IMG/VR virus record: IMGVR_UViG_2541047850_000005
Span: 1-64,000 of that record
Direction: 5' to 3' (one strand)
From: a virus
Taxonomy: Duplodnaviria > Heunggongvirae > Uroviricota > Caudoviricetes
DNA: 64,000 nt
Shown: positions 5,328 through 59,943 of the stretch, piece by piece
Layout: each line of letters opens with the position of its first letter
Numbering within the stretch: the first letter of the stretch is position 1
Notes under the pieces: generated by a model
What the model saw: only the letters and a program-made list of their open reading frames with translations
Databases searched by the model: none
Told to the model about the DNA's origin: nothing
Position numbers and translations under genes: made by a program

Positions 5328-5677
5328 GATTAATTCCTTATCGTAAATAACAAATTGTTTTCTTGTTGGCGTTAATTATCGTTGTACGAATAAGGCATCA
5401 AAGTGGAAAGTTGCGGTAGCCGGACGGGAACAGGTGGGTTTGTCGGTTGCCTGGAGGTAAGAGGTTGGTGTTTTTAGCCTGCGGGAAACAGGATGGTCAT
5501 TTAAGGCCACCAGCAGTGGTGGCCTTAATAATTATCGACCGATTACGCTAAGGATCTTTTCCTCAACTGATTTGTTGTTGCGACTAAACTGCCTTGCGTA
5601 TCTGATGACAGAAGAGGCGTTTTGCTTTCTGACTATCTCGGCTCTTTCCTTCAGGCGTTTCTTGAAATCGCCCATAT

Positions 5678-6052
5678 TTACCACCAGGCGCAGAAGGTCA
5701 GTCTGTTATTGTGAAAGTCGTGGTTCTTAATCAGCTCTTCCACAAGTTTTTTCAACTCCCCCACGTCATGCCAGTACCCTTCATCGTACTCCTGACTGCC
5801 GAAGAAAAAACCTTCACAGGTAGGTAAGTACTCTTCGCAGTTACTTTCGTTCATGTGCATCAAATGAGCTTTCAGAGCACAAATGTCATTCATCGTTAAT
5901 TCTAAAAGCTCACAATTTTTGACTTCACCTACGTTGCGTTCCATCCACCCAAAGAGAGCATTGAACTTACGGAAGTAAGCAACCTTCTTTCTGGATGCAT
6001 CGTTATTCAGATCGTTTTTTGGTTGCGTCTCAATGTAGATATCAAGTCCCAT
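5678..6052 (-). CDS. hypothetical protein (124 aa, Cys/His-containing)
   Basis: ATG start with AAGGAAACC RBS and upstream palindromic motif. Confidence 0.5.
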   Translation of the reverse strand: MGLDIYIETQPKNDLNNDASRKKVAYFRKFNALFGWMERNVGEVKNCELLELTMNDICALKAHLMHMNESNCEEYLPTCEGFFFGSQEYDEGYWHDVGELKKLVEELIKNHDFHNNRLTFCAWW

Positions 6053-6170
6053 GATGGTTTCCTTATCAAGTTGCTTTCAGTGAAAGCATTTTCACAAATC
6101 AGATAAGGCAGAAAACAAATTGTTATCGGGCATAAGAAAATGGCGCGGTTTACGCGCCATTCAAAGAGGA

Positions 6171-6566
6171 TTAAGCGAATACGCTTTCAGGGATTAAGGT
6201 GTCAGCAGGAATGCCGGAGGTAATGCGCAGACCATACTGACCAATCCAGGTAGTGTTAGTGTTCAGACTGGAAGCGAATACGGTGTTAACCATATTCATC
6301 ATGGTTTCAAACACCTCTTTATTCACCTTACGGAAGTAACTTTCAATTTTCAACAACAACGGGTCCGTTGCATCAAAAATGGACTGATATTGCGCCTCAT
6401 ATTCCCCGCCTGATGTATCTCCTTTACGCACAATAGTACTTGCCTGAACTTCAGTTCCAGTTTCGGTGTTGTACGTAACGACGGTGATTTTAGCTACATT
6501 CTTACCTTCGGCGCTTTCTGAAGCATAGTAGACATCAACTGTCAGGTTTTCTCGTTTAACGCTCAT
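6171..6566 (-). CDS. hypothetical protein (131 aa; start moved to internal ATG with GGAGAG RBS)
   Basis: ORF track 6171..6578; ATG at 6566 has a better Shine-Dalgarno. Confidence 0.5.
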   Translation of the reverse strand: MSVKRENLTVDVYYASESAEGKNVAKITVVTYNTETGTEVQASTIVRKGDTSGGEYEAQYQSIFDATDPLLLKIESYFRKVNKEVFETMMNMVNTVFASSLNTNTTWIGQYGLRITSGIPADTLIPESVFA

Positions 6567-6692
6567 ATCACTCTCCATAGTGTCTTGGTTATTTTTCTAT
6601 TTTATAGACATAGGTATGTACTTACAATACAAAAAAAACCCGTAAGGATGGCGGGGCTGTCGTACTGTCGACTAATTACCACTTGCACATTA

Positions 6693-7004
6693 TCAGGCTA
6701 TTGCCATCACTGATGCTCTCTGAATCTCTTGCTGGGCCACGCGGTTAACTTCCATCAAAGCCAGTTCGAGCTGATGTTCCGGCCACATTCTTTGAAATGC
6801 CATCCAGCCTTTTCCACGCTGGCGACGAACATTCATTACATAACGAGTAAAGGTGTTTTTATCGAAAGACACCGCTGTTTCACGGAACAGACGAATAGAG
6901 GTTCCATTGGCAACGATGTCCAGCAAAGTTAATTGAGCAACCAGCGCAGGCTTCTCTTTTCTCTTCTGGTCTTTGTCCAGACCAAGAACCAATGATTTTT
7001 TCAT
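6693..7004 (-). CDS. hypothetical protein (103 aa; ATG start MKKSLVLG)
   Basis: track ORF begins at a TTG; in-frame ATG at 7004 has GGAG RBS and the conserved motif just upstream. Confidence 0.5.
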   Translation of the reverse strand: MKKSLVLGLDKDQKRKEKPALVAQLTLLDIVANGTSIRLFRETAVSFDKNTFTRYVMNVRRQRGKGWMAFQRMWPEHQLELALMEVNRVAQQEIQRASVMAIA

Positions 7005-7157
7005 CACAACTCCGTAAACAACTTGTTTTCTCAATGTCGTAAATAATACCAGTAAGAAAACGGCTACAAAGCATATTGATCAGGTGCATGAGCGATATGC
7101 AGGTTCTTCCCTGCGGCTATAGAGAAATTAAGCCAGCAATGCTGGCTTTGGTTGGGA

Positions 7158-7487
7158 TTACGCGAATACCTCAAGAAACTCCTGAACGTCCCAATGCTGG
7201 ACGAGGTGAAGATAGACCTTAGAAATCACGTCATTTTCACTATCGCATGTGAAGTAGTACTTCTGGCTGCGGTTGTATGTGTCCACACAAAATTCGCTCA
7301 TATCCATAAAGTCAGCATCTTCACCCATGTCGCAAATCATCAAAGCAGGTGCGTCATCACGAGTCATCAGCTCCAGCACCCATATTGAATTAATCAGAGT
7401 GGAAGACCAACCTTCCAGCTCATAAAACTGGTCAAACTCTTTTTGAGTCAATTTCTTAATTTGGTTGATGTCGATATTTGCAAACAT
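7158..7487 (-). CDS. hypothetical acidic protein (109 aa; start MFANIDIN)
   Basis: in-frame ATG at 7487 preceded by AAGGAT RBS and the conserved motif. Confidence 0.5.
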   Translation of the reverse strand: MFANIDINQIKKLTQKEFDQFYELEGWSSTLINSIWVLELMTRDDAPALMICDMGEDADFMDMSEFCVDTYNRSQKYYFTCDSENDVISKVYLHLVQHWDVQEFLEVFA

Positions 7488-7626
7488 AAAGCAATCCTTA
7501 AACATGTTGTTTTCTGAATTACGTAAACAATACCAGTAAGAAAACGGCCACAAAGTATATCGTTACGGTGCTGCGCTGCCCCGGAGGTTAATAGCGACAA
7601 AAGCCACCGTGCTGGTGGCCTCACTC

Positions 7627-7845
7627 TTAATCTTGGTCGTCCGGGAACTCGCTGTGTACCGCGCCAACCAGCTCCCGCTTTTCATCTTCACTCAGCAGGT
7701 GCCAGATATCCTTCCCTTTGGGCGATTCCCCTTCTGCCGGGACGAACGACCACAACTTGCGGTACAACTCCGGCCCCACTGCATCCAGACACTCAGCCAG
7801 GGAATCCACGCCCCACACCTCAACCGTCACAGGCATCTTAATCAT
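7627..7845 (-). CDS. hypothetical small protein (72 aa)
   Basis: ORF with GAGGA RBS. Confidence 0.45.
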   Translation of the reverse strand: MIKMPVTVEVWGVDSLAECLDAVGPELYRKLWSFVPAEGESPKGKDIWHLLSEDEKRELVGAVHSEFPDDQD

Positions 7846-8439
7846 CTCTTCATCCTCACTTCGTTTCTATAACGTCTAAATATGCTGTTTACTTGTTGGT
7901 GTTATTATCGCAATAAGACAAAGGCGAAAAAGGATTTTATGTCGGGAAAGCCAGGCTGGGCAGTGAATATCCGGGAACGACACGAGAGCCAGTATTTACG
8001 ATATTCTGCTCTACGCACGCCGCGGGGCTGGTGGGCAGAATAATCCTCTCCCCGAAAACCTACTGAAATCGATTGTGACCCGCTGGCTGTCTGGCACAAT
8101 TACGCTGTATCTGGCATTCAGAGGGAATCCAGCGGTAAGCAAGTCAGCCTGCACGTGAGCGTCTCTCTTCTTCCCGCACATTACAGGTGGGTAGCTGCAA
8201 CTCTCTCTCGCTATACCGGTACGCCGCCGTTCCTGAACCGGCATCGAGCCTTTTCCCGAAATCCACACAGGCAACTCGACCGTTTCCCTGAAAATCCCCA
8301 GCCGTTTCTGTAGCGTATGCAACCTTTTCTCTGTATGGACCGAAGGCTGACCGTAGGGGTGTTACGGGGGATGATGGTAAGATGTTGAATAAATACGAAA
8401 AAGGAGGCGACACCCCTCCTTCCCTCCCCACTTATACAT

Positions 8440-9300
8440 ACCTTGCTTCTTCGCTATACATGTTGTGTTTTCTTCGTGTTTTATCTGTCTCAACCTCTCT
8501 ATAGGCGTTAATGCTTACTCCTTCCAGAACGTTCTATACGGCGACTATTTCTGTTGGTGAATTGGGTGTGTTGTTTTCTCTGTCGATGTATGTGGTTTCG
8601 TTCGTTTTGCGGTGGTTCTTCTATGGGGTGTTCTCGTCGTTTTGGTGATTGTTCTTCTCCGTGTATGGAGTAATGGCAGGTGGGCGATTCCTTTCGTTAT
8701 TGTGTTTGAGTTGTTTGTCTGGAGTGTGTGAAGGGCTTTTGTAGTTATTCGTGTATTGGGTAATGGCGTTTCCCGTGATTGTTATGTTTCGTGTCTTTTG
8801 GGATTGAGAGAAACCTTGCGGTTACAGGCTTCGTTGGGGTTTCAGCGGTTCAGGTGTTTCTTCGCTGTTTGGGTAATGGCGTGTCGTGGGTATCGCGCGT
8901 ATGAATGTTTTCGGATTGCCTGTGAAAGTTAGGTTGGTTATCCGGTAGCCTGGGAAGAAGAGGTGGGGTCTTTTCGGTAGCCTGCCATAAAGAGGTTGGT
9001 TGTTTTGGGTAATGGCATATGTGTTATTTGGTTGTTTTGTTATGCCTGAAAATAAGTTGTTTATATGGTTGTGTAACGCAACGGGAGCGATTTTGAGCGT
9101 GTGTTTTTGTTGGTAGTGTGTTGAGTCGTCTGTGGTGAAAATTGGACGCTGTGGAGCTGTCTGCTGCGTAGGTTTACGGGTATAAGAAGTGATGTGTGAA
9201 AACGTCAATTTTTTAGACCAAATCGGGAGAAAGCGTTGATGTTTCGTTGATCTGTTATTTAGTTGTTTTCTTATTGGTATAAACAACTGTAACCTATTGA
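8440..9300. repeat. strongly G+T-skewed non-coding tract with degenerate ~100-135 bp repeats (recurring GGGTAATGGC core)
   Basis: plus strand nearly devoid of C/A runs; GGGTAATGGC-like core recurs at ~8664, ~8762, ~8872, ~9008; CGGTAGCCTG repeated twice. Confidence 0.5.
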
Positions 9301-9414
9301 TATTTAAGGATGTGATTGCAGGCATGGAAGGGGAGTAGTGGCGATCAACGGATTCTTATAGAAAAGAATCAAATTGTGACCGCCATTATCAACGGTTTGA
9401 ATATGTTTGCAGAT

Positions 9415-9714
9415 TTACCAGTTCCAGCACTCAAGCCCTTCAACGACCGGCGCACCACAATCAAAATGTACAGAGTCAAAGCCTACATCAAGTACTTTCT
9501 GAATGTTAGCAATCGCGCCTTCGGATATACCATATCGACGCAAGTCGTCTTTCCAGACATCATCCTGTAACCCGGCGTGGACAATACAACCGCCATCAAT
9601 TTGTGAAACCCAATCCAGCTCATTGCTTGCGATCATGAATCGGCGAGCATCTTCCTCTGATGTATGAGATGAACTGATCAATGCCACCTGGTAGGCTTGG
9701 GTAATGTTCAACAT
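9415..9714 (-). CDS. hypothetical protein (99 aa; start MLNITQ)
   Basis: in-frame ATG with GGAG RBS; two copies of conserved motif upstream (9727..9790). Confidence 0.5.
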   Translation of the reverse strand: MLNITQAYQVALISSSHTSEEDARRFMIASNELDWVSQIDGGCIVHAGLQDDVWKDDLRRYGISEGAIANIQKVLDVGFDSVHFDCGAPVVEGLECWNW

Positions 9715-9823
9715 TTCAACCACTCCAAAACAAGTTGTTTTCTTATGTGGCTTATTATCTCTAACAACAAAAGGCAGAAAACAAATTGTTTTAGGTACTG
9801 TGTAAATCAGAAGGGATTGTGTC

Positions 9824-9854
9824 TATATGAAAATGCCCGGCGTGTTGCCGGGCA
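9824..9854 (-). terminator. rho-independent terminator downstream of metG
   Basis: hairpin ATGCCCGGC-N5-GCCGGGCAT followed by TTTT on the minus strand. Confidence 0.6.
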
Positions 9855-9875
9855 TTGCGAAGAGAGGTTGCTTAA

Positions 9876-11909
9876 TTACTTAACCTGGTGACCAGGTTTA
9901 GCACCAGCATCCGGGCTTAACAGGAAGATATCTTTCCCACCAGGACCAGCAGCCATCACCATGCCTTCTGAGATACCGAAACGCATTTTACGCGGAGCCA
10001 GGTTAGCCACCATAATGGTGTGACGACCAATCAGTGCCTGTGGGTCTGGATAAGCAGAACGAATGCCGGAGAAGACATTACGCTTTTCCCCACCGAGATC
10101 CAGTGTCAGACGCAGCAGTTTGTCAGAGCCTTCAACAAACTCCGCGTTTTCAATCAGCGCCACACGCAGGTCAACTTTGGCGAAGTCGTCAAAGGTGATG
10201 GTTTCCTGAATCGGGTCGTCAGCCAGTGGGCCAGTTACCGGTGCGGCTGTGGCTTTCACTTCTTCTTTGGATGCTTCCACCAGTGCTTCCACCTGTTTCA
10301 TATCGATGCGGTTATACAGCGCCTTGAACGGATTCACTTTGTGGCCCAGCAGCGGTTGCTGGATACCATCCCAGGTCAGTTCTGTATTGAGGAATGCTTC
10401 TGCGCGCTCGGTCAGTTTCGGCAGTACCGGTTTCAGGTAAGTCATCAGCACGCGGAACAGGTTAATGCCCATAGAGCAAATCGCCTGCAGATCGGCATCG
10501 CGACCTTCCTGCTTCGCCACCACCCACGGAGCCTGTTCATCGACATAGCGGTTAGCCAGGTCAGCCAGTGCCATGATTTCACGGATAGCTTTACCAAATT
10601 CGCGGCTTTCCCATGCTTCGCCAATCACTTCAGCGGCATCAGTAAAGGTTTTGTACAGTTGCGGGTCAGCCAGTTCGCTTGCCAGCACGCCGTCAAAACG
10701 CTTGTTGATAAAGCCTGCATTACGGGAGGCCAGGTTAACCACTTTGTTCACGATATCGGCATTCACTCGCTGAACGAAATCTTCCAGGTTGAGATCGATA
10801 TCATCAATGCGCGAAGAGAGTTTCGCAGTGTAGTAGTAACGCAGGCTGTCGGCGTCAAAATGATTCAGCCAGGTGCTGGCTTTAATGAACGTGCCGCGAG
10901 ACTTGGACATCTTCGCACCGTTCACCGTCACATAGCCATGAACAAACAGGTTGGTCGGCTTGCGGAAGTTGCTGCCTTCCAGCATGGCAGGCCAGAACAG
11001 GCTGTGGAAGTAAACGATATCTTTACCGATGAAGTGGTACAGCTCGGCGGTGGAGTCTTTCTTCCAGTATTCATCGAAGCTGGAGGTGTCGCCGCGTTTG
11101 TCGCACAGATTCTTGAAGGAACCCATGTAGCCAATCGGCGCGTCCAGCCAGACGTAGAAATATTTGCCCGGCGCGTTCGGAATTTCAAAACCGAAATAAG
11201 GGGCGTCGCGGGAGATATCCCACTGTTGCAGGCCAGATTCAAACCACTCCTGCATTTTATTTGCCACCTGCTCCTGCAACGCACCGCTGCGGGTCCATGC
11301 CTGCAGCATTTCGCTGAAAGAAGGCAGATCAAAGAAGAAGTGTTCGGAATCACGCATTACCGGCGTAGCACCAGAAACTACCGATTTCGGCTCGATCAGT
11401 TCAGTCGGGCTGTAAGTCGCGCCGCAGACTTCACAGTTATCGCCGTATTGATCTGGCGCTTTACATTTAGGGCAGGTGCCTTTTACAAAACGGTCCGGCA
11501 GGAACATGCCTTTTTCCGGGTCGTATAACTGAGAGATGGTGCGGTTTTTAATAAAACCGTTCTCTTTCAGGCGAGTATAAATAAGCTCGGACAACTGACG
11601 GTTCTCTTCGCTGTGCGTCGAGTGATAGTTGTCATAGCTGATGTTAAAGCCTGCAAAATCAGTCTGGTGTTCCTGACTCATTTCGCCAATCATCTGTTCC
11701 GGTGTGATACCAAGCTGCTGTGCTTTCAGCATGATCGGTGTGCCGTGGGCATCGTCGGCACAGATGAAATTAACCTCGTGGCCGCGCATTCGCTGGTAAC
11801 GAACCCAGACATCAGCCTGGATGTGCTCCAGCATATGGCCGAGGTGGATTGAGCCGTTAGCGTACGGCAGCGCGCACGTCACCAGAATTTTCTTCGCGAC
11901 TTGGGTCAT
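9876..11909 (-). CDS. metG: methionine--tRNA ligase
   Basis: 677-aa product starting [26 protein letters not shown] (HIGH motif), KMSKS motif, C-terminal tRNA-binding domain; track ORF extends upstream of the true ATG. Confidence 0.95.
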
Positions 11910-12066
11910 AGTAGGCATTACTTCTTTGTAGTGAAAAGGGGCTTGATAGTAACAAAATGGCCTTATGTCTGCCATGTGATAACAGCATTTCTCATAAATG
12001 ATTAAATGCCGTAGCTGGAGTACACTACAAGGCGACAATTGCGCAAATTAAAATAAAGGAGACGGG

Positions 12067-13167
12067 ATGAGCGAGTCCAAATCGCCGGATGCCCTGAGAG
12101 CAATGGTAGCCGGTACGCTGGCTAATTTTCAGCACCCAACCCTGAAACACAACCTGACTACGCTTAAAGCGTTACACCATGTTGCGTTGATGGATGACAC
12201 ACTGCATGTCGAACTAATCATGCCTTTCGTGTGGAATAAGCCTTTTGAAGACCTGAAAGAGCAATGTAGTGGTGATCTGCTCCGTATCACTGGCGCAAAG
12301 GCTATCGACTGGAAGCTGTCGTACAACATTGCCACGCTTAAGCGCGTCAAAAACCAACCAGGCATTAATGGCGTTAAGAACATTATCGCCGTCAGCTCAG
12401 GCAAGGGCGGCGTTGGTAAATCCTCCACGGCGGTAAACCTGGCACTGGCGTTGGCTGCTGAAGGTGCGAAAGTTGGTATTTTGGATGCCGATATCTACGG
12501 GCCATCAATTCCAACCATGCTTGGCGCGGAAAACCAACGTCCAACCTCACCGGACGGTACTCACATGGCACCGATTATGTCTCATGGACTGGCAACCAAT
12601 TCAATTGGTTATCTGGTAACTGACGACAATGCGATGGTGTGGCGTGGTCCGATGGCGAGCAAGGCGTTAATGCAGATGTTGCAGGAAACTCTATGGCCTG
12701 ATCTGGACTATCTCGTTCTCGATATGCCGCCGGGTACTGGTGATATTCAGCTGACGCTGGCGCAGAACATTCCTGTAACTGGTGCTGTTGTGGTAACTAC
12801 GCCGCAAGATATCGCGCTGATCGATGCGAAGAAAGGCATTGTGATGTTCGAAAAAGTCGAAGTGCCGGTACTGGGTATCGTCGAAAACATGAGTGTGCAT
12901 ATTTGCAGTAACTGCGGTCATCACGAGCCAATTTTTGGCACCGGTGGCGCACAGAAACTGGCCGAGAAATACAACACGCAGTTGTTAGGCCAAATGCCAC
13001 TTCATATCTCTCTTCGTGAAGATCTGGATAACGGAACACCAACCGTTATTAGTCGTCCAGATAGCGAATTTACGGCTATTTATCGTGACCTTGCAGATCG
13101 CGTTGCTGCCCAAATGTATTGGCAAGGTGAAGTAATACCTGGCGAAATCGCATTCCGCGCAGTGTGA
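12067..13167 (+). CDS. apbC: Fe-S cluster carrier ATPase ApbC/Mrp
   Basis: P-loop SSGKGGVGKSSTAVNLA, CxxC motif (HICSNCGH), divergent from metG as in enterobacteria. Confidence 0.9.
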   Translation: MSESKSPDALRAMVAGTLANFQHPTLKHNLTTLKALHHVALMDDTLHVELIMPFVWNKPFEDLKEQCSGDLLRITGAKAIDWKLSYNIATLKRVKNQPGINGVKNIIAVSSGKGGVGKSSTAVNLALALAAEGAKVGILDADIYGPSIPTMLGAENQRPTSPDGTHMAPIMSHGLATNSIGYLVTDDNAMVWRGPMASKALMQMLQETLWPDLDYLVLDMPPGTGDIQLTLAQNIPVTGAVVVTTPQDIALIDAKKGIVMFEKVEVPVLGIVENMSVHICSNCGHHEPIFGTGGAQKLAEKYNTQLLGQMPLHISLREDLDNGTPTVISRPDSEFTAIYRDLADRVAAQMYWQGEVIPGEIAFRAV

Positions 13168-13194
13168 TAAAAAGGTGGTGCAATGCACCACCTA
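13168..13194. terminator. hairpin terminator between convergent apbC and umuD-like gene
   Basis: AGGTGGTGCA-a-TGCACCACCT stem with A/T runs on both sides (bidirectional candidate). Confidence 0.5.
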
Positions 13195-13204
13195 AACAGT
13201 TCTC

Positions 13205-13594
13205 CTACATCACAGGACAATCATCAAACTCGCCACTTCTTGCGTCGTTGATAATGTGAGTGATCACACCAAACACGGCATTGCTGCCCGTGCATCCATC
13301 ATCATCCTTTGGCAATGCTTCCTTCTTACCAGTTCTTAAATCCTCCAGATGCTGACGTGGATACTTCCGGTATCTTTTTACGCGATATTCCCCATCCAGA
13401 GCACATACAAGAAGAGATCCATCAACAGGAGTGAGTGAGGAATCGACCACCAGCAATGCACCCTGCAATATTCCCTCACGATGATGGCTATCAGCTGCCC
13501 TCAAGAAGTAGGTCGCTGAAGGATGTCTAATTATCTGCTGATCAAGAGAAATACGGCTCTCAGCATAATCCGCCGCAGGAGAGGGGTACCCCAT
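13205..13594 (-). CDS. umuD: UmuD-like S24 peptidase (translesion-synthesis accessory, HumD/UmuD' type)
   Basis: 129 aa; alignment-by-eye to UmuD (..HPSATYF..A.DS....GI..G.LL.VD.....G.......DGE..VK..); Ser and Lys of the S24 dyad present; LexA box upstream; no umuC adjacent. Confidence 0.75.
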   Translation of the reverse strand: MGYPSPAADYAESRISLDQQIIRHPSATYFLRAADSHHREGILQGALLVVDSSLTPVDGSLLVCALDGEYRVKRYRKYPRQHLEDLRTGKKEALPKDDDGCTGSNAVFGVITHIINDARSGEFDDCPVM

Positions 13595-13612
13595 AGCGTT
13601 TTACCTCAAAAA

Positions 13613-13632
13613 TACTGTTTATCTGTACAGTA
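13613..13632 (-). promoter_or_regulatory. LexA (SOS) box TACTGTTTATCTGTACAGTA upstream of umuD-like gene
   Basis: perfect CTGT-N8-ACAG core ~20 bp upstream of the ATG at 13594. Confidence 0.7.
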
Positions 13633-13751
13633 TACATTAAAGAAGCACCTTTGGTGCATTAGAGAAATGCAAAACGATAATAGAGGCTAAATCGAGGTAG
13701 AAAACACATTGTTTAAGGCCACTAATTGTGGCCTTAATGGAGAGGGGATGC

Positions 13752-14276
13752 TTATTGGCTATGGCTAAAAATCAAATTAGACACTTCATGTGGTTGTAGC
13801 TCGTCAAGATCCGGTGCCACAAAACCTTTTCCGAAAGACTTCACAAGTGATTCACCAGCCGCATCATTGTCACCTATTACACGAAAGTCATACGGCAGCA
13901 TTGCCAGTTGACGACGTAATCCTGCTGAGAAAGTCGAACCTAACAGCGCCCACGAATTTCCGCCCGCGTTGTGCACTGCTGCACTTTTAAAAATCGACTC
14001 AGTTATCCATATCGGTCCATCTTTTAAAGGAAGATAGGTTCCCCATAGTAGCTGTCTGCCGTGCGCTCGTGTGAAATACCGGGCCATCTTCGGATTGCTG
14101 TGCTGCTTAGGAGCGCCTGGTCTGTATGTCTGATACCCGGCCAACATCCCATCAAACCTGTATAGAGGGAATGTAACAACTCCTTCGCTTTCATCGATCC
14201 ACTGTCTATATGGGTGTATATCATGGCGGTAGTTACGAGTCAGCAAATGAGCTTCCAGCTTTCCAAATTTGGTCAT
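13752..14276 (-). CDS. Toprim-domain protein (primase-like)
   Basis: ..PIWITESIFKSA.. and ..VIGDNDAAGE.. resemble Toprim Glu and DxD motifs; start set at internal ATG MTKFGK. Confidence 0.55.
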   Translation of the reverse strand: MTKFGKLEAHLLTRNYRHDIHPYRQWIDESEGVVTFPLYRFDGMLAGYQTYRPGAPKQHSNPKMARYFTRAHGRQLLWGTYLPLKDGPIWITESIFKSAAVHNAGGNSWALLGSTFSAGLRRQLAMLPYDFRVIGDNDAAGESLVKSFGKGFVAPDLDELQPHEVSNLIFSHSQ

Positions 14277-14289
14277 AACTTCGCATCCC

Positions 14290-15144
14290 TCATAACACTT
14301 CCCATTTATCACCATATTTCTCCATAGCTCTTAGCCAGTAAACATGGCCACTAGGCATAGTGATGTGAGGCTCGCCAAACTCTTCTCCATGCACATCAAA
14401 GATGTCCCCAACAGAGAATTGGGGGATTTCTGTGCCGTTTTCACCTATATGCGTAATTCGTATACGTTTCGGTTGAGATTCGCCCCCTTTGAGCGAGTTG
14501 TTCACGGCTCTTGCAATCTTCTCCCGCAATTGCTGCGTTCCGTGATACGAAACCGCAATATCCCGCAACTCGTTCACCAGTTCTCGAATTTGGTGATCTT
14601 TAAGCTCATTATTTGGGTGATGGGCAACAACTCTGGTTAATTCACCCTTGTCTTTTGCTCTTACGTATGCAGCTCTTGTGCATTCGACCCATGTATTACC
14701 GCCTACATTAACTTCGTAGATTAGGCTGGACTTATCTGTTAATTCGGCACAAATACGGGCCGTGGTCTGACAACTAGAGCATTCGCAGTGATCACGGAAA
14801 CCGTGATCTACTGGCTTCGGTTTCACATCATCAACTTTTTCTACCCTATTGGAATTTAAATACTTCGAAGCCTTGCTATGCCAATCGCTGGTTTTAGGAT
14901 CTTGTCCATCCATCAAACGCCAGGCTTCAGCGATTAACTCATAACTAGTGACTGTAGCTTCCTGCGCATCACCAATAAGTCGTGTAATCTCTCTTTCAAG
15001 CCGACCGCCTAATTCCGTTTTAGTGCAATGTTCTGACCAATCGCCAGCCTCAAGAAGCGCGAGAATGTTTAAAATATCGTCCAATAGAACGGTAGTATTT
15101 TCGACTTCCTTCTGAAGCTCTCCGGCTGCTGATTTATGCGTCAT
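14290..15144 (-). CDS. hypothetical protein (284 aa, Cys cluster HCECSSCQ; possible primase zinc-binding partner)
   Basis: ORF with ATG; immediately upstream of the Toprim gene. Confidence 0.5.
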   Translation of the reverse strand: MTHKSAAGELQKEVENTTVLLDDILNILALLEAGDWSEHCTKTELGGRLEREITRLIGDAQEATVTSYELIAEAWRLMDGQDPKTSDWHSKASKYLNSNRVEKVDDVKPKPVDHGFRDHCECSSCQTTARICAELTDKSSLIYEVNVGGNTWVECTRAAYVRAKDKGELTRVVAHHPNNELKDHQIRELVNELRDIAVSYHGTQQLREKIARAVNNSLKGGESQPKRIRITHIGENGTEIPQFSVGDIFDVHGEEFGEPHITMPSGHVYWLRAMEKYGDKWEVL

Positions 15145-15410
15145 TCGTCATCCTCATCCGACTCATCCTCATCACAGGTTGAGAGTAGTGGGTTAGTCAT
15201 TCGTCCTACTTGAGTGGCGTAGCCACGCCGACAGAGATTGCGCAGCACACTGTATATTTCGAACATCTCGGTTCGTTCCTCACCAACATCAAGCTCAGAT
15301 GCTATAGCGTGGCATTCAGTCGCGAGAGCCGATATTTTCTGAAATAACTCTGCTTTATTCACTCTTCGACTCCTGCGGAGGTTCTGGTAGCGGCATCCAG
15401 TGTGTGACAT
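15141..15410 (-). CDS. hypothetical small acidic protein (89 aa)
   Basis: ORF overlaps the 3' end of the upstream gene by ~56 nt; start uncertain. Confidence 0.3.
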   Translation of the reverse strand: MSHTGCRYQNLRRSRRVNKAELFQKISALATECHAIASELDVGEERTEMFEIYSVLRNLCRRGYATQVGRMTNPLLSTCDEDESDEDDE

Positions 15411-15963: not shown

Positions 15964-15964
15964 A

Positions 15965-16402
15965 TCACTCTCCTTTTCCCTGAAGCATGGCAGCGTGGCA
16001 GGCATCCTCTACGCCCTTAACTGCATCTGCGCAGTAGTTATAGCGATTGCATTCCACTAACTTCTGCTTGAGATTTTCAATTGCTTGCGCGACATCAGCC
16101 TGTATTACGGGAACGAGGGGAGCGGCGTATACTTCAATTGTCCCATTATCAATAGGCCACTCCCCATCCTTGATGTAGTCACTTGTGCCGTCAACTTGCT
16201 GTTCTGCAATGTGGAATGCACCTATTGGTTTTGTCTCAAGTGAGGCCAGTGCAATTCGTGCCAGTTTTAGATCTCGTTCGACCATCTCAATAACAACTTT
16301 GCAGTCCGCACCTTCTTTACTAACACGTCCTTTCAAGTCTTCCAGATAACTAACGCTTTCGCGTGCATGGGAGATTAACTGTTCTTTGGTTAAGGTGGTC
16401 AT
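15965..16402 (-). CDS. hypothetical protein (145 aa)
   Basis: ATG overlapping upstream stop (translational coupling). Confidence 0.5.
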   Translation of the reverse strand: MTTLTKEQLISHARESVSYLEDLKGRVSKEGADCKVVIEMVERDLKLARIALASLETKPIGAFHIAEQQVDGTSDYIKDGEWPIDNGTIEVYAAPLVPVIQADVAQAIENLKQKLVECNRYNYCADAVKGVEDACHAAMLQGKGE

Positions 16403-50543: not shown

Positions 50544-51572
50544 TTAAAGAGAGTCCAGCTCTCTCAGTAGGTCATCCAGACCTTCATCTTCCGTCGCAGA
50601 TGCGGCTGCTACAGATGTCGCTGCGACTGCTTCAGACTCTTTGACTGATACTGCAACGGCAGCGGAACTTGCTTCTGGTTTAAATTCAGTTTCAACGGCA
50701 CGGAGGATTTCTTCATCAACCAGACTGGTTGGTTCAGAAGCTGGGGTGTGAGCGGTAGCTACAGCAGTCGCACCCTCCGTATGACCAGTGACAGAGCCAA
50801 ATCCAGGCAGTGCCGCAGCCGATGTTTTCGCGGTTGAGGAAATTGCTGGTGCAGATGCTGCGGCAGTTGGTGCAGCGATGCCAATCAGACGACCCATAGT
50901 GCGAACTGTCGACAGAAGACGAGTTTCATCAGCCTGATTTGCGTATGCGATCAGATCATGCTGGGTGTTCCAGAATTTATCTTCGATATCGCCTTTGTAG
51001 ACTTTACGCTTAGGCGAGACGTCATATTTGGTATCGCGACCAGAGCCAGTACGTTTAATCAGGAATGCGTAGCCTTCCTCTTTGCTCAGTGGATTACCGA
51101 TATCATCAGCGATGTCTTCGGTGATTGCTTTGCAGATATCATCGAATACAGTAGACGGCAGCTCGATTAACTGGCATTTCTCAGCATCTGCGAAATCCTC
51201 ACGAGCAGAAAGAATGCCGTTGACCAGGTAGCGAGGAGTGGCACGCATTTGACCGATGCGTTCTTCCATTGCTTTGTTACCCTTGTGACGAGCGCGACCT
51301 TCCATCACCATTTCGCATAGCTGACAAGCGCGACCGTGAGTATGTTGCTCACAAATATAAGCGTTGGTTGCTTCTTTACCTTCCTCGTTCTGATACTTAA
51401 CGTAGTGCATACCGAAAGTCTGGAAGAACTTACCGTTTGGGTCGTCTTTATTCGGGAAGATGCGGATATAGTTGACGCCGTCTTTTAAGCGAGTCAGATC
51501 AACGTTGTTACCACGTTTGGCGGCAATGTCTTCACGAGTTTTGTTAAGCAAATCAAGTAATGTCTTAGACAT
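50544..51572 (-). CDS. single-stranded DNA-binding protein, T4 gp32-like
   Basis: ..IRIFPNKDD.. and His-Cys-Cys-Cys spacing (MHYVK..ICEQHTHGRACQLCE) reminiscent of gp32 zinc site; long Ala/Ser-rich linker and acidic C-terminal tail. Confidence 0.6.
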   Translation of the reverse strand: MSKTLLDLLNKTREDIAAKRGNNVDLTRLKDGVNYIRIFPNKDDPNGKFFQTFGMHYVKYQNEEGKEATNAYICEQHTHGRACQLCEMVMEGRARHKGNKAMEERIGQMRATPRYLVNGILSAREDFADAEKCQLIELPSTVFDDICKAITEDIADDIGNPLSKEEGYAFLIKRTGSGRDTKYDVSPKRKVYKGDIEDKFWNTQHDLIAYANQADETRLLSTVRTMGRLIGIAAPTAAASAPAISSTAKTSAAALPGFGSVTGHTEGATAVATAHTPASEPTSLVDEEILRAVETEFKPEASSAAVAVSVKESEAVAATSVAAASATEDEGLDDLLRELDSL

Positions 51573-51689
51573 GTGTTTCTCCTTGTTGTGATTTGGCCGA
51601 TGGCGCTATGCGCGTTGGGCTTTCGTTCATTCGTGGCTCTTTCGAGCTGTTTAATGATAGATCAGTGCTTACTTATTATCTATCAAAAA

Positions 51690-55200: not shown

Positions 55201-55765
55201 GGTCGTAGAATGGGGTAGGGTGCGGATAAACCACGCTATAGAAGTTGTCTTTTCCACCCGCTGTAATCAGTGTGCTTATGATTTTTGCAAAATCGTTGCG
55301 TTGGAACACGCTACCGATGTCGGAAGTGAGCAGGATGATGTTGCCTTTGGCATATGTAGAAACCAACTGTTCGAGCGAGAGACGCGGTACAAAGTAGAAC
55401 TGTTCTCGTGTGTTGGCCACCGTCATTAGTTCGCAGATGTCGCGATATCCTTGCTCATTTTTAATTAGAGCGGTAAACGAGTAGTTACGTCCCCGCTCTA
55501 ATGATTCCATACATCTCATAGATTCTTTAGCAAGTTTAGCACGGTGCTCGTATGTGGGATCATCAACAATGTTTAGTTTCACACCACAAATAACCGCCAT
55601 GTCGTCACCAGCGGCACGTTGTAGTGGAATAACGCTCGCAATATTCATGCTATCTGCTGAAATTACAGCGGTGTAGCCAGCTTCTCTGGCAATCTTCACC
55701 GCGTTTTCTGCTTTTAAAGCCGACTCCCCAAGTGAGAAGTCAGTTCGAACCATCAGTGCCTTCAT
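52247..55765 (-). CDS. dnaE: DNA polymerase III alpha-like (DnaE-type, C-family) replicative polymerase
   Basis: 1172 aa; N-terminal PHP-domain-like region, large multi-domain architecture typical of DnaE; the island encodes its own DnaQ-like exonuclease. Confidence 0.85.
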   Translation of the reverse strand: MKALMVRTDFSLGESALKAENAVKIAREAGYTAVISADSMNIASVIPLQRAAGDDMAVICGVKLNIVDDPTYEHRAKLAKESMRCMESLERGRNYSFTALIKNEQGYRDICELMTVANTREQFYFVPRLSLEQLVSTYAKGNIILLTSDIGSVFQRNDFAKIISTLITAGGKDNFYSVVYPHPTPFYDQINVRAMKVASALKIEPVAFYPAYYESIDDADIKDIAHMVTNNIKIDQPHRLRIPHQRDNAVNGRRHLLESLKAFSVRMDVPVTAAMASTTQDTIIDACTWRWHELPPALPKMADDEPATLMKLAVAGLRKRLTTKEFGYTPPASENRVYVERLKYEMDTLTRLGFCGYFLMVRDLMNHSRETGIPVGPGRGSSAGSLVAWCIGITNVDPIRHGLLFERFINPERLDLPDADLDFSQARRHEVIEYLNERYGEDYVAGIPNFTYLGAASALRDTARIYGVDAADMAVSKELKNVEDDSLPLEELREQLASLDKYATKYPDAFNAACKLQSIMRGFGRHAAGMIVAGVPLTERTPVERRGDARCIAFDKRYCEAMGLIKLDVLGLATLDLLDSAKRYIKENTGEDINLDAISLEDRKVLDGFAAGYTQGVFQLESGPMRKLLKDLGGGIEPMSFKTVVATTALFRPGPIQSGMLDDYVSVAKGFMTPESLHPVLDELTAETNGVILYQEQTMNATRLLAGFTMAEADGVRSAIGKKNMEKMKSMGEKFIVQAQAGWIDVELEDGTTQRIHRAEHFKCEDGTLKTVEEALEHGAKLPINAVRVTASHPGLSEMKAKEIWTAFEKNGAYQFNKSHSVAYSLISYQSMWLKTHYPAEFFAAALTILGEDKHQGLVKDALTYGIRVLPPDVNVSSNRIEIRTLEDGSQVLYAPFSAVKGCSENGCQAIMRAREKVGGKFESLAQFEEAVEKRACNSRVRESLRKVGAFASIEPGSLPATDPERLRDQAELMGNLVIDAVKASRPFEMNPKRSAEINVLMTRMAAEMGLGDELIRPSIGIKPKIMIILDNANGNDARTGYFMENGYDDFKAKLLTAGDLRMGDLYVTGVCKKVKDKEKDYTKDEIGQFTDFIREEINLVRPTYVLTCGSRATALFNNKNKPSDLVGRKEYLPDLDVTVFYGFNPNILYFRPEEGERLEAILADVAETIKS

Positions 55766-55945
55766 GTGTTTTTACCTTTCTGGTTTTTTTGATTTTGTCA
55801 TTTGGGAAGCCTACGAACTTCCCATGCATCGAAATCGCAACTTCTTTTGCTGATTGGTGACAATAAGGCTTGTCTGGACACACCAGACAAGCCTTACCAG
55901 TTTCAGAAGCAGCGATAAGAGAGCCGAAACATCCTTTACGCACGA

Positions 55946-57181
55946 TCAACCAAATATTTTTTGAACAACTTCACGAGCCGCTTGTGCAGAAGCTGAAGGG
56001 AGTTTGTTAATGAAAGAACGCTCAATACCTGTCACAAAATCGCCTCGCATCATTCCAATCTTGGCCGACAACAAAAGCTCACGAGGCCCAATCGGTTGGC
56101 TGATATTGTGTTCTTCGTATCCATCGCGAACGATACCGGCAAACTTAACCATCTTTTCAGCGTATTCATCCACGATGCCGGCATTTATCAACATGTTGAT
56201 CTCTGCCTCTTTGCTCATGTATTTCACATTCGAAACGATGCCAAAACGCGAAAAGTTAGCGGCGTTCTGGATGTTTGTACCCTGGTACAAGCCGGTTTCA
56301 TCACCAGATCCGTTCGTGTTGCCAGTGCCAATGAAAGCAAACCGTTCATGCGGAGTAATGCGACGCCATTCTGGAGTCGCCTCTTTGATGACCAACGCTT
56401 CACCTTCCAGCACTGGCTGATACACGCCAAGAATCTGTGGAAACGCAAAGTCGTATTCATCCGCGAGGTAAACCCAGCCATGCTTCATTGCGAGCGCAAG
56501 CAAACCAGGCTCGAAATACGTAGAGCCATCACGCGCCAGAATTTGTCCCGTAACATGAGCCTCTTCCATTGATGCTGTATGTTGGGCACGGATTAACGGA
56601 CGATTGAGCAAAGCACATAGTTGTGTAGGCAATGAAGATTTGCCTGTTCCTGCATGACCCCACAAATAGCCTGGTATGCCAAGTTCAAGCATCATGAAAA
56701 TGTCTTTGATCAGTTCGAAGTCGCCATATACGTATCCCTTCTTCACTTCTGGAACGAACTCTGGAAACGGCGTATTGACGTTGACGCTAACCATGAGCGG
56801 CGTCCCACGTTTTGTTCCGAGTTCTTTCACCGTTACATTTAGCATTTCGTGAGCTGCGACCAGATCTGTCTTGTACTCAACTGTGCCTGTATAGCCTGGG
56901 CTATTGGTCACGCCAGATGATTTGGCCATTTCGCTTTTTTGCTCGGCACGTTTAGCTTGAATTGCATCAAGTGCCTTTTTCGATAGCGTTGGCTCATCTG
57001 GAAACTGCGTTGTGTACATTTTCAGTACGGTGTCAGGATCGGCATCTTTTACTGACTCAGGAATGCCCTCGCAATTACCATTGGCTACATGGGACTTAAA
57101 ATAGTGAAATGATTTTCCGCACCACTTGCAAACAAGGTAATCAGAAGGATTTTTTTCATTTTGCAGTGCAGTAGTAGTCAT
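55946..57181 (-). CDS. CobS-like MoxR-family AAA+ ATPase with N-terminal Cys/His zinc-ribbon-like segment
   Basis: Walker A ..GHAGTGKSS.., Walker B ..VYLADEYD..; N-terminal CKWCGK..H..C. Confidence 0.7.
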   Translation of the reverse strand: MTTTALQNEKNPSDYLVCKWCGKSFHYFKSHVANGNCEGIPESVKDADPDTVLKMYTTQFPDEPTLSKKALDAIQAKRAEQKSEMAKSSGVTNSPGYTGTVEYKTDLVAAHEMLNVTVKELGTKRGTPLMVSVNVNTPFPEFVPEVKKGYVYGDFELIKDIFMMLELGIPGYLWGHAGTGKSSLPTQLCALLNRPLIRAQHTASMEEAHVTGQILARDGSTYFEPGLLALAMKHGWVYLADEYDFAFPQILGVYQPVLEGEALVIKEATPEWRRITPHERFAFIGTGNTNGSGDETGLYQGTNIQNAANFSRFGIVSNVKYMSKEAEINMLINAGIVDEYAEKMVKFAGIVRDGYEEHNISQPIGPRELLLSAKIGMMRGDFVTGIERSFINKLPSASAQAAREVVQKIFG

Positions 57182-57276
57182 GCGTTTTTCCTTTGTTTTC
57201 TAATGAGCTTTCAACTTCTTATATAAATATACCATCAAATATCGTAAGTGATTACTTATCATTAAGGCTATTCTAA

Positions 57277-59385
57277 TCACTTCAAAATGATACGAGATAG
57301 TTCAGTAACTACAGATGAACCAAGACTATCAACGCTCGTTACCAGGGCATGGTTTGCGTAAAATCTCTCCGGTGCGTCAGTCATGATGCCAATTGCCATC
57401 AAATCAATGTCAGTCTGCGTTTCAATTTGCTTCGCAACCGAACGCAAATGAGCGTCAAAACCTCTCCCAACAGCCAACGGCTCGCCATCATTCAGAACAA
57501 GCATGATCTTCCTGTCCTCCATGCGACCGGAAAATAACGATGCAAGGCTGGCTATGCTTTCACCATCCACGTTATTAAGAAGTGGGAATGTGTAGCCTAC
57601 GCACCCCATACGTGAGCGAACTTCGCGAGAATTTACCTTTTCATTCCAATTTTTGATGATAGGTAGCATTAAAGATTCAAAGCGAGAGAACTCATACTTG
57701 ACAGCCTTAAGTTCTCCTGCCGCCATATGACTACCAAATGTAGTGAAGCCGGTGATAATGTTGGGAACATTTATTCGATCAAGGGCATCGGCGATGGTAT
57801 ATGCACTTGCAAGAGCCAATTGTATCGTTATACCACTCATTGAACCTGATAAATCAATCACTTGTTGAACACAGGCGTTAACGGCTTTAGATTCTTCTTT
57901 TTTACGAAACACGCGATCATCATTCATTGCTAATCTGTAGATACTAGAACCATGAATGCGCCCCCGACGCTGGCCCGGTATAAACTGAACTCTGTTTCTG
58001 CTTGCTATTGCTCGCTCCAGGTCTTTTGCCAGCGTCGACGAAACACCTGACGAAAGATGCTTTTCAATATATTTGTCGAAGAGCTGGTTGCCTTCAGGAA
58101 CGATGCGATAGCGGCTGATTGGATATCCTCCTAAATCAATATCGGAGAATGTTTTAATAAGCCGTTTGATATGGGCTTCTGCCTGATCAATCGAGCCGAT
58201 GAAGTCGTATGAGCGATTGTATGGCCTGTATTCACTTTTCGAGCTTTCTGTTAACTCGCTTTTAATCGTTTCGGATAGAGCATCTTCTGTCATGCCTCCG
58301 ACTTCATCTTCTATGCTATCCAGCTCCTCTAAAGCCTCTTCCAGACTCATTTTTGACGTAGTTGGAATATCTGAAGAGCCGTCTTCTGTCGTTTTTCTTT
58401 TTTCGTGGTCAGCGGTTAATGATTCTGACGCCGCGTTATCAGAAGCATCAGAATCTGATACCTCTTTATCATTTTCTGTATCATCGAATATTGTTTCTGA
58501 TGATTCAGAATTATCTGAATCATCACTGTCGTTATTATCATGTTTGTGCTTACTATGTGATTCTGATTTGATAGATTTGTGATTATCTAACAATGAGGGT
58601 GTCTCATGATCTTCGTTGTCTTCATTGTTTTCTCCAGAGGCATCCGTCTGGTCAGCGTCTGAAGGATCGGAAGTTTTTCCCGGAGCTGACTCCTTACCTT
58701 TGCTTTCACTTTCAGTGTCTTTGAGGATCTTAGCTATGGTCGCAGCCACCTTTACACAATCCTCGGTGCAAGACATGTTACGCACGGCCACATCGATACC
58801 ATGTTCTTTTAATAATGAAATTGGTTTCTCAATGACAGGCCAATATTCATCCATGAAATCTACGAACGGTGCTTGGCCATCCCAGGCTCTTACAACCGGA
58901 CAGAGAAAGAAGTTTAGAAAAAGCGCGCGCTGATCTTTGCCACAATAAGCAATAGCCTCTGAAGCCTTTGGTTTAAAGACTTTTTCGATTATAAGGCGCT
59001 GAGTTGCCATCAGATTACGTCTTGTTCCGTTAAAGACCTGACCCATTTTTCGCTCGATGAACACGTCTTCTAAGGCATTCCATAGCGACCAGGAAGGAAC
59101 GCGTCCTTTTTCTTTCATTTTGTTGGACACACGAATATCGGTAAACAAAATGTGAGCAACCTCATGATCGAGAAATCCGCGCACAGCATTCATCAATGCC
59201 GGTGTTGCGTTATCCGGGATTGATGGGATGTTTACGAGAATTGGCTCTCCATCATCATTATAGCGTACATAAGCGTCGTCCCCTCGTTCTGCAACAGGGA
59301 TGTTTTTACCTGAAAGGAGAGCGACTACTCGTTTTACACTGTCACGGAAGTCCTGAACCTCTTTGATGGAACGTTTTTTAGACAT
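57277..59385 (-). CDS. CobT-like protein with C-terminal von Willebrand factor A (vWA) domain and acidic low-complexity central region
   Basis: MIDAS-like motif ..VIDLSGSMSG.., D/E/S-rich linker, 702 aa; adjacent to the MoxR-like ATPase. Confidence 0.7.
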   Translation of the reverse strand: MSKKRSIKEVQDFRDSVKRVVALLSGKNIPVAERGDDAYVRYNDDGEPILVNIPSIPDNATPALMNAVRGFLDHEVAHILFTDIRVSNKMKEKGRVPSWSLWNALEDVFIERKMGQVFNGTRRNLMATQRLIIEKVFKPKASEAIAYCGKDQRALFLNFFLCPVVRAWDGQAPFVDFMDEYWPVIEKPISLLKEHGIDVAVRNMSCTEDCVKVAATIAKILKDTESESKGKESAPGKTSDPSDADQTDASGENNEDNEDHETPSLLDNHKSIKSESHSKHKHDNNDSDDSDNSESSETIFDDTENDKEVSDSDASDNAASESLTADHEKRKTTEDGSSDIPTTSKMSLEEALEELDSIEDEVGGMTEDALSETIKSELTESSKSEYRPYNRSYDFIGSIDQAEAHIKRLIKTFSDIDLGGYPISRYRIVPEGNQLFDKYIEKHLSSGVSSTLAKDLERAIASRNRVQFIPGQRRGRIHGSSIYRLAMNDDRVFRKKEESKAVNACVQQVIDLSGSMSGITIQLALASAYTIADALDRINVPNIITGFTTFGSHMAAGELKAVKYEFSRFESLMLPIIKNWNEKVNSREVRSRMGCVGYTFPLLNNVDGESIASLASLFSGRMEDRKIMLVLNDGEPLAVGRGFDAHLRSVAKQIETQTDIDLMAIGIMTDAPERFYANHALVTSVDSLGSSVVTELSRIILK

Positions 59386-59943
59386 GGCTAATCCTTTGTT
59401 ATGAAAACAAATTATTTACTAGTATGTTTAATGTAGCACTGCGCGAACAGGGAACTAAGCCATTCGCGCAGGTAGCAGAGGGGTTAACAGGTTCTGACGG
59501 CTAAAGAGCCAGAGCCGGTATTGATAAGCGTGAAGCGTTTGTTATTAAGTAGGAATATAAAGGCTGTTGCGTCATGCATACCAACCTGAATCTGCTCATT
59601 TGGTAATTCGGTGAGAATGTCAGCTACACATTCATCAGCTAATTTTTCAACGTGTCCGATCTCAAGAGTGATTAGGCTGGAAATAGTTGTTTTCATTCAA
59701 TCAATCCATTCTAACTTAAAATATGGTAGGGAGTACTATTAAATCTTATATCATAATTGAACTTATCTATATCATATCTGAGTTAGTTTTGTTACATGTT
59801 ATTAGTCGTTTTTCTCCATTAATGAATGCTGATTGGTTAATATTTGTGCCTGTAGAAAAAATGATTATATCTTTACAACCCTAACCTTTGATGTAATATC
59901 GGTAAGCACTTACCAGAGAGTTTAACGCGCAAAGGTCGCAATA

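Follow-up and report, generated by a model that had tools for sequence, protein, structure and literature searches.

In the C1 immunity regulon of phage P1, which is maintained as a plasmid-prophage, one short operator, the 17-bp asymmetric sequence ATTGCTCTAATAAATTT, is repeated at many promoters over ~100 kb, with some of these promoters bearing two copies. The operator is placed either over the promoter core or immediately downstream, as may be seen in the P1 record AF234172, where Ossb directly follows the -10 of P2ssb. For the regulatory circuit of the SSU5-like phage-plasmids no description was found in the searchable literature. Here we consider a 64-kb stretch of DNA (positions 1 to 64,000 of the IMG/VR virus record IMGVR_UViG_2541047850_000005; hereinafter the window), the entirety of which is one SSU5-like phage-plasmid, and a palindrome with the 13-base core AAACAAnTTGTTT that recurs upstream of its genes. 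The P1 C1 regulon appears to be the closest functional analogue of this motif, which shares with it the repeated use of one short site, sometimes in pairs, at or just downstream of the promoter core across a plasmid-prophage. The AAACAAnTTGTTT motif differs in being a symmetric palindrome of 13–19 bp, of unrelated sequence, that is set at two strictly phased positions. It is therefore not a member of the C1 operator family, and the likeness is functional only; no C1 homologue was noticed in the phage-plasmid, a search aimed at C1 not having been made.

The 20-kb stretch of the window that was queried (5000–25000) matches the 108-kb Escherichia phage PhiR41_1 at 99.6% identity and shows patchy similarity to phage Cyrano, Salmonella phage SSU5 and Klebsiella phage-plasmids. 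The ends of the window were mapped on the annotated PhiR41_1 record, whose origin the window crosses, the exception being an insertion sequence (IS) near the window start.

The full form of the palindrome is AGAAAACAAnTTGTTTTCT. At up to one mismatch, AAACAANTTGTTT has 14 matches in the window against 0.62 expected, a number that no dinucleotide shuffle out of 100 reached. Complete copies of the full 17-mer GAAAACAAnTTGTTTTC are rare, the conserved part being the 13-mer with AGA added on the left in one class of sites and TCT on the right in the other. All 13 positions listed in an earlier note on this DNA were recovered within 0–4 nt in the scan at up to one mismatch, along with one further copy at 9050, and the placement that it had described, upstream of the ribosome-binding site (RBS) of minus-strand genes or directly after terminator hairpins, is correct: the distance from the palindrome centre to the start codon is 15–37 nt in nine window copies and 67–114 nt in four. 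The enrichment and positional bias that it had proposed to check are likewise borne out. In 130 kb of enterobacterial chromosome, taken as a control, there are no exact copies and one with a single mismatch, as against 6 and 14 in the window, while the phage copies are almost all intergenic. The complete PhiR41_1 genome has 18 copies, 17 of them intergenic though intergenic DNA makes up 11% of the genome (p = 1e-15); these intergenic copies sit 18–114 nt upstream of gene starts, on the coding strand, and those beyond the window lie upstream of parA, of the DnaB-like helicase gene and, as a pair, of the terminase operon. To our knowledge, no known E. coli transcription-factor site matches the motif, and a host transcription-factor site was rejected, given the rarity of the motif in the 130 kb of host-type chromosome and its mostly single-copy occurrence outside the SSU5-like family. 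The motif is a real, strongly non-random and family-wide cis-regulatory element.

The copies fall mainly into two promoter architectures. In class A, the order is a -10-like hexamer (GATAAT, TATTAT, CACAAT, TATAAT and others), a conserved stretch of 13–14 nt (AAcgCCAAyAAGA), the palindrome, the Shine-Dalgarno (SD) sequence and the start codon; the last base of the -10 lies 20–21 nt before the palindrome centre, which would therefore be at about +13/+14. In class B, the palindrome usually comes after a terminator or GC hairpin and continues as TTGTTTTCTnCCTTTT, and the -10 starts exactly 26 nt past the centre, which would therefore be at about -38, with the right arm overlapping a -35-like TTTTCT that is common to all these promoters and has a 16-nt spacer. 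Among 43 sites in three genomes, the class A spacing is found at 15 (background 5.4%, p = 3e-9) and the class B spacing at 7 (background 2.8%, p = 2e-4). The distance from the centre to the start codon is variable (15–114 nt), unlike the spacing between the centre and the -10. The -38 and +13/+14 positions are 51–52 bp apart, i.e., five helical turns, and some promoters bear both; such dual-operator promoters, with 51 bp between the centres, are kept in PhiR41_1, SSU5 and Cyrano. Beyond the palindrome, the conserved cassette includes a spacer element, CCTTTT, and the discriminator AAcgCCAAyAAGA. The copies in the window, each a putative operator, are as follows, with the -10 hexamers being consensus-based assignments and d the distance between the -10 and the palindrome centre.

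5348–5360, minus strand: putative operator, class A (downstream of the -10); -10 GATAAT at 5375–5380; gene 4845–5327 (minus strand, 160 aa), start 27 nt from the centre
6113–6125, minus strand: putative operator, class B (overlapping the -35 region), 8 nt after a terminator hairpin; TG-extended -10 GAAAAT at 6088–6093, 26 nt from the centre; gene 5678–6052 (minus strand)
7016–7028, minus strand: putative operator, class A; -10 TATTAT (with TGn) at 7043–7048, d = 21; gene start ATG at 7004–7006
7500–7512, minus strand: putative operator, class A; -10 TATTGT at 7527–7532, d = 21; gene 7158–7487 (minus strand)
9050–9062, minus strand: extra copy AAACAACTTATTT, absent from the list in the earlier note; no clear class A or B geometry
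9728–9740, minus strand: class A copy of a putative dual-operator promoter; -10 GATAAT at 9754–9759, d = 20; gene 9415–9714 (minus strand), DUF5983-like
9779–9791, minus strand: class B copy of the same promoter (gene 9415–9714), 26 nt upstream of the -10 at 9754–9759 and downstream of the metG terminator
13702–13714, minus strand: putative operator, class B, abutting the hairpin AAGGCCACaattaGTGGCCTT; -10 TATTAT at 13677–13682, d = 26; gene 13205–13594 (minus strand), UmuD-like
18785–18797, minus strand: putative operator, class B, abutting a GGCC hairpin; -10 (TGT)GAAAAT at 18760–18765, d = 26; gene 18204–18710 (minus strand), Eae-like
23328–23340, minus strand: putative operator, class A; -10 CACAAT at 23354–23359, d = 20; gene 22740–23309 (minus strand)
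24057–24069, minus strand: putative operator, class-A-like; weak -10 (AGCAAT/ATTTAT); gene 23607–24032 (minus strand), TciA-like
34275–34287, minus strand: putative operator between nrdA and nrdB, kept in SSU5; no good -10; gene nrdB, ATG at 34242–34244
45728–45740, minus strand: putative operator, class-A-like, directly after the terminator GGCGTCCAGTTGGACGCCTTTTTT, whose stem contains a -35-like TTGGAC; gene 45286–45711 (minus strand)
59405–59417, minus strand: putative operator, class A; -10 TACATT at 59430–59435, d = 19; gene 57277–59385 (minus strand), CobT-like

The copies at 9779 and 9728 have their centres 51 bp apart and a common -10. The cobT copy is kept in Y. pestis pFra, S. Typhi pHCM2 and Cronobacter and Klebsiella plasmids, while the intergenic DNA around it diverges. 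At the expected -35 of the cobT promoter lies an inverted repeat with 12-bp arms (~59437–59472, minus strand; CCTGCGCGAAtggcttagttccCTGTTCGCGCAG, in relatives CTGTACGAACAG...CTGTTCGTACAG), which is also conserved in pFra, pHCM2 and the Cronobacter and Klebsiella plasmids and could represent either a terminator or the site of another regulator. The 9050 copy, together with the upstream sequence cgctcccgttgcgtta, is kept in SSU5, Nissabacter and Cyrano. The region around it (8950–9100, minus strand) is annotated as coding in PhiR41_1 (an ORF of 128 aa with a pI of 11.4) and in Cyrano (CYRAN_103), an annotation that is doubtful, and it looks like conserved non-coding regulatory DNA, with cgctcccgttgcgtta followed by the motif and then by CA-rich repeats aacaaaacaaccaaataacaca...cccaaaacaaccaacc.

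The earlier note had also pointed to a shared GGAAAAACACATG leader, and this is real: there are 8 matches at up to one mismatch against 0.15 expected, all on the minus strand at gene starts. It is a shared translation-initiation region, consisting of the SD, an A-rich spacer and the ATG, and is separate from the palindrome.

18708–18720, 23307–23319, 34242–34254, 41295–41307, 45228–45240, 51570–51582, 55763–55775 and 57179–57191, minus strand: GGAAAAACACATG sites of eight genes

The two architectures recur across the family. SSU5 has 20 copies in the same two arrangements and at orthologous places, including parA, the helicase gene, nrdB, cobT and the terminase pair, and the same motif is carried by a Nissabacter phage-plasmid (multiple copies in a 20-kb locus) and a K. 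quasipneumoniae plasmid. When all palindromes are counted without bias, the motif ranks first in PhiR41_1, SSU5 and the K. quasipneumoniae plasmid. A scan of 2.9 million viral contigs with a 17-base version of the motif recovered at least 119 loci: among the matches listed, 102 are SSU5-like loci, usually with multiple copies, and 17 are unrelated, mostly with a single match, though two of them have two at up to one mismatch. From the listed loci, at least 172 distinct class A contexts and at least 86 distinct class B contexts could be gathered, and on the listed SSU5-like contigs the different flanking genes to which the putative operator is joined number at least 67 for class A and at least 39 for class B. 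Thus, the promoter-operator cassette may be seen as a standard plug by which the family controls variable cargo. The palindrome is conserved at 0.93–1.0 within orthologous groups, as against 0.68–0.95 for its flanks. A syntenic Acinetobacter relative, the A. baumannii plasmid pCFSAN093707, lacks the motif.

The window had been read in the earlier note as two accessory islands around conserved housekeeping genes, metG and apbC, with the occurrence of the motif on both sides implying a shared origin or regulator. The implication stands, as the whole window is one element, while its premise falls: the metG/apbC-like genes are phage cargo (a methionyl-tRNA synthetase, MetRS, and an Mrp/ApbC-like protein) that is also found in Cyrano as CYRAN_100 and CYRAN_99, respectively, and therefore host genes do not part two islands. 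The two-island layout was thus rejected in favor of a single phage-plasmid with its own MetRS and Mrp/ApbC-like cargo.

Whether such an element operates as DNA or as RNA can be judged from its geometry and its composition, and the evidence favors DNA. This is because the spacing is locked to the -10 and not to the RBS, because class B, to which about a third of the copies belong, is situated upstream of the -10 and hence outside the regulated transcript, and because the arms are complementary up to a single central base that is unusable as a hairpin loop. The near-invariant bases are AACA/TGTT, and the central pair varies but remains A/T, as would a DNA site read by a protein. An RNA hairpin that serves as a processing site, a 5' stabilizer or part of a terminator could draw on the self-complementarity of the sequence, the several copies that abut terminator-like hairpins and the folding of the complete 19-mer (-5.1 kcal/mol). 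However, the folding energy of the 13-mer is 0, five natural leaders show no gain in folding over shuffled sequences (z from -0.1 to +0.9), and a search of Rfam with the window gave no match. Mismatches break the pairing, and no compensatory double changes were found among the sites with two mismatches. The motif thus has neither the stable stem nor the compensatory changes of a structured RNA or an intrinsic terminator, and the hairpin, which was rejected for its lack of stability, covariation and Rfam match, is highly improbable. Among the three possibilities that the earlier note had raised, the RNA-processing site is therefore dropped, the operator of a dimeric regulator is preferred, and the promoter element survives in part, in that in one class the right arm doubles as a -35-like hexamer.

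That last overlap can be taken further, to a promoter-intrinsic sequence that needs no dedicated protein: the A-tract/T-tract palindrome would act as an UP-proximal and -35-like element in class B or as an initial-transcribed or leader element in class A, and would have spread by duplication and recombination. In line with this, the right arm of class B together with TCT forms the -35-like TTTTCT of all the cassette promoters, AAACAA stands at the expected proximal UP subsite, and the entire cassette, including spacer and discriminator, is conserved. However, promoter function alone would hardly account for an identical palindrome at two unrelated positions in the promoter, no known promoter role attaches to the left arm of class B or to the whole class A site, and the palindrome is conserved above its flanks. 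We regard such an origin as improbable.

The palindrome is, in our estimate, probably the DNA operator of a phage-encoded dimeric repressor, a view held with moderate confidence. It would act as a double-stranded-DNA operator within a stereotyped promoter cassette of the sigma-70 type, which the SSU5-like phage-plasmids would place before early, accessory, replication and partition genes. The operator would occupy one of two phase-locked positions, ~+13/+14, over the start of the transcribed region, or ~-38, where its right arm is the -35-like TTTTCT. A phage-encoded dimeric (or dimer-of-dimers) DNA-binding protein would bind these sites and exclude or trap RNA polymerase, so that about 18–20 dispersed transcription units might be held off in the plasmid-prophage state, by a logic akin to that of the dispersed C1 operators of P1. 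A parallel might also be struck with lac, in which the primary site is likewise near the start of the transcribed region (~+11, as against ~+13 here) and, on the same helical face, an auxiliary site is found at a distance of a whole number of helical turns (51–52 bp in the phage-plasmid). Here, in contrast, there is neither a LacI-family protein nor a LacI-type half-site, and the auxiliary site falls on the -35 region and not far upstream or downstream; looping or cooperativity is hypothetical.

Some bearing on the sign of the control comes from the transcriptome of the Cyrano lysogen (table S1 of PMC9928086), in which the phage background is 9.8. The first genes downstream of the motif are near this level (cobT 7.8, CYRAN_101 7.5, CYRAN_105 12.8, CYRAN_106 12.2, CYRAN_108 5.7, CYRAN_110 6.7, CYRAN_111 25.5 and the helicase gene 21), with parA at 50 (PMC9928086). 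The silent motif-linked genes have promoters with good -10 hexamers, and expressed genes without the motif include the toxin-antitoxin pairs, repA, the apbC-like gene and the helix-turn-helix (HTH) regulator. The near-background level of the motif-linked genes fits repression in the prophage state, though as weak evidence.

The opposite sign of control would have the palindrome recruit an activator (class-II-like, at -38) or load a processivity factor, switching on weak promoters that have no -35. The absence of a canonical -35 from these promoters and the nearness of -38 to the positions of class-II activators are consistent with this, as is the expression of one class B gene in the lysogen. 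However, a centre at +13 is classic for a repressor and unusual for an activator, most motif-linked genes are silent in the lysogen while the candidate regulators are expressed, and no Q-like or N-like protein was identified. The terminase operon also bears on this proposal: its two copies (~+13 and +38) precede an intrinsic terminator in the manner of lambda PR'-tR'. Upstream of the small-terminase gene (PhiR41_1 45640–45753; SSU5 20–133) there is a weak -10, CCTAAT, followed by the two copies 25 bp apart and then by the intrinsic terminator (AGAGCGCATGGACGCGCTCT + GTGTGTTTT) immediately before the RBS. By analogy with the lambda layout, this leader suggests antitermination control of the late operon. 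For the motif in general, positive control or antitermination seems a quite improbable role.

Several observations weigh against the repressor operator. At the motif sites, a simple consensus scanner found no canonical -35/-10 pairs, and because of this the promoters are proposed from their -10 hexamers and their likeness to one another. The common descent of a mobile promoter cassette, and not selection, could account in part for the fixed spacing. Conservation in class A is higher in the left arm than in the right, an asymmetry that would not be expected of a purely symmetric dimer site but may reflect the overlapping start-site region. As lysogens keep most phage genes silent in any case, the silence of motif-linked genes is weak evidence for this site; moreover, the class B UmuD-like gene CYRAN_98 is well expressed in the lysogen (148) and parA moderately so. 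Finally, the genes of the candidate binders, namely those for the HTH protein, a 92-aa protein and an FljA-like protein, all have promoters without the motif.

Two of these candidates are encoded in the window, and ~800–960 plasmids in PLSDB carry one or other of their genes.

2259–2777, plus strand: candidate trans factor at the RNA level, FljA-family protein; Pfam PF03614 Flag1_repress, E = 1.3e-68, full length
59944–60330, plus strand: candidate trans factor, 128-aa XRE-type HTH protein adjoining the integrase; counterpart of CYRAN_45, a "putative repressor" expressed in the Cyrano lysogen

FljA-type proteins have been described as translational repressors of fliC mRNA (PMC2652032). The phage protein, for which a tandem Hfq/Sm-like fold is predicted, is ~36% identical to true FljA, and its gene is conserved in ~830 SSU5-like plasmids. 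It might read the motif on mRNA, at ~+7 to +19 of the leaders, blocking translation and destabilizing the message, which FljA of Salmonella is reported to do at the fliC leader, and so act as a RegA-like global translational repressor of early genes, a mode of action that could coexist with DNA control. In addition to the full-length Flag1_repress protein in the window, the fliC leader of Salmonella and Citrobacter holds CAAGTTGT, an exact 8-nt core of the motif, centred at 24 nt from the ATG, a distance in the class A range; the motif and the FljA-like gene co-occur in the enterobacterial SSU5-likes and are both absent from the syntenic Acinetobacter relative; and the FljA-like gene is expressed in the Cyrano lysogen. 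However, class B, with about a third of the copies, lies outside the regulated transcript, yet is equally conserved and phased; an RNA-binding fold fits class A, whose 9–10 of the 14 window copies we infer to lie in leaders, but not class B. Perfect two-fold symmetry would have no evident purpose in an unstructured RNA site that has neither hairpin stability nor covariation, and the spacing is fixed by reference to the -10 rather than the SD or ATG. The fliC leader scores -3.4 on the full matrix, as against 16–24 for the phage sites, a value matched by 2.8% of random 62-nt windows, and the E. coli fliC leader does not have the core. The shared presence and absence extends to 47 other genes. 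This RNA-level operator is unlikely, although it is the main rival of the DNA operator.

Scored against the fliC leader, the motif gave only a weak match, and identity with the FljA operator was set aside. The full motif is absent from fliC, and FljA is reported to act on mRNA, whereas the phage sites are promoter-locked and some lie outside the transcript; the FljA/fliC system would possibly be a relative only if the motif were read on RNA. A comparison for covariation of the motif with regulator divergence proved uninformative: between E. coli and Nissabacter the motif does not vary, and the FljA-like protein of the latter is at 59% identity; a seemingly divergent Klebsiella copy is a frameshift artefact. 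A wider scenario, to which we give the same tentative standing, would make the Hfq-like FljA-family protein the global regulator that reads the motif, a sequence-specific repressor controlling ~20 early units through their leaders at the RNA level and possibly at the DNA level. FljA itself, the phase-variation repressor of Salmonella, would then be a domesticated descendant of this phage regulator, and the plasmids, pHCM2 and pFra/pMT1 among them, could cross-regulate the flagellin of the host.

For the preferred dimeric repressor, the XRE-type HTH protein is a candidate as widespread in PLSDB as the FljA-like gene. The operators of the XRE repressors of 434 and P22 resemble the motif in being short, A/T-rich palindromes with ACAA/TTGT half-site bases and a less conserved, A/T-constrained centre. 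They differ in their spacing (ACAA-N6-TTGT, as against ACAA-N1-TTGT here), and the phage-plasmid does not show cI-cro clustering. Phage SSU5 has no homologue of this HTH protein, yet keeps all motif sites, and the Acinetobacter phage-plasmid has the HTH homologue and neither the FljA-like gene nor the motif. The intergenic region of the HTH gene itself bears a different palindrome, GGTAAGTGCTTACC (~59903–59916), beside the gene start, which is conserved down to the Acinetobacter relatives. The profile of presence in the enterobacterial clade only is common to 48 genes, among which is that for a 92-aa basic protein (PhiR41_1 40460–40738; CYRAN_117) encoded 1.7 kb beyond the window start and expressed 12-fold above background in the Cyrano lysogen. 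Its N-terminus looks like a ribbon-helix-helix, which structure prediction and comparisons of the protein did not establish.

The palindrome near the HTH gene belongs to a second enriched class, TAAGT(N0-8)ACTTA / GGTAAGTGCTTACC, which often lies ~10 nt upstream of TATATA/GATATT in the replication and late gene regions.

57245–57258 and ~59903–59916 of the window: sites of the second palindrome class
42347, 53738, 78689 and 101183 of PhiR41_1: sites of the second palindrome class
9068, 15590, 21938, 38179, 41774, 45125, 55700 and 72362 of SSU5: sites of the second palindrome class

In the P1-type late promoter, which is Lpa-dependent, a 9-bp inverted repeat, AAGTnACTT, has its centre at ~-22, upstream of a -10 (boxes read from AF234172). 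The main motif differs from it in sequence and positions, whereas the second class fits it, with half-sites AAGT/ACTT equal to those of the P1 -22 box (CAAGTTACT + 4 nt + -10). The related TAGTAAGnnCTTACTA is the top palindrome in the Acinetobacter relative. The second class might serve as a promoter box, late or middle, of the P1 kind, or else as the operator of the HTH repressor. The Acinetobacter phage-plasmid further encodes a sigma factor of the sigma-70 family (15101–15766 of pCFSAN093707) between the MoxR/CobS-like gene and dnaE, a place where the enterobacterial SSU5-likes have no sigma factor, and the two clades may use different transcription strategies.

Among the neighboring genes, the Mrp/ApbC-like gene (12067–13167, plus strand) is on the strand opposite to nearly all others and has no copy of the motif, while its Cyrano counterpart is expressed in the lysogen (92 vs the background of 9.8). 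It can therefore be seen as a moron outside the operator-controlled regime. The adjoining MetRS gene (9876–12038, minus strand) shows weak expression (16). The insertion near the window start is an IS3-family element at ~770–1950 (ORFs 772–1080 and 1077–1943, plus strand) with an rve integrase core and HTH_21, which is absent from PhiR41_1. It splits the gene divergent from the FljA-like gene, for a lipoprotein with a counterpart in CYRAN_115, leaving a 61-aa stub at 1971–2156 (minus strand).

SSU5-like phage-plasmids are common in clinical Enterobacterales, include S. Typhi pHCM2 and Y. pestis pFra/pMT1, and some of them carry resistance genes; the group is thus clinically widespread but mechanistically unstudied. 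The motif is the first concrete cis-element of the SSU5-like circuit, recurring at ~20 promoters per genome and in at least 100 different cassettes family-wide. It offers a precise architecture to mutate and a short bait for finding the master regulator, and it marks which cargo is under phage control and which, such as the apbC-like gene and the toxin-antitoxin genes expressed in lysogens, escapes it.

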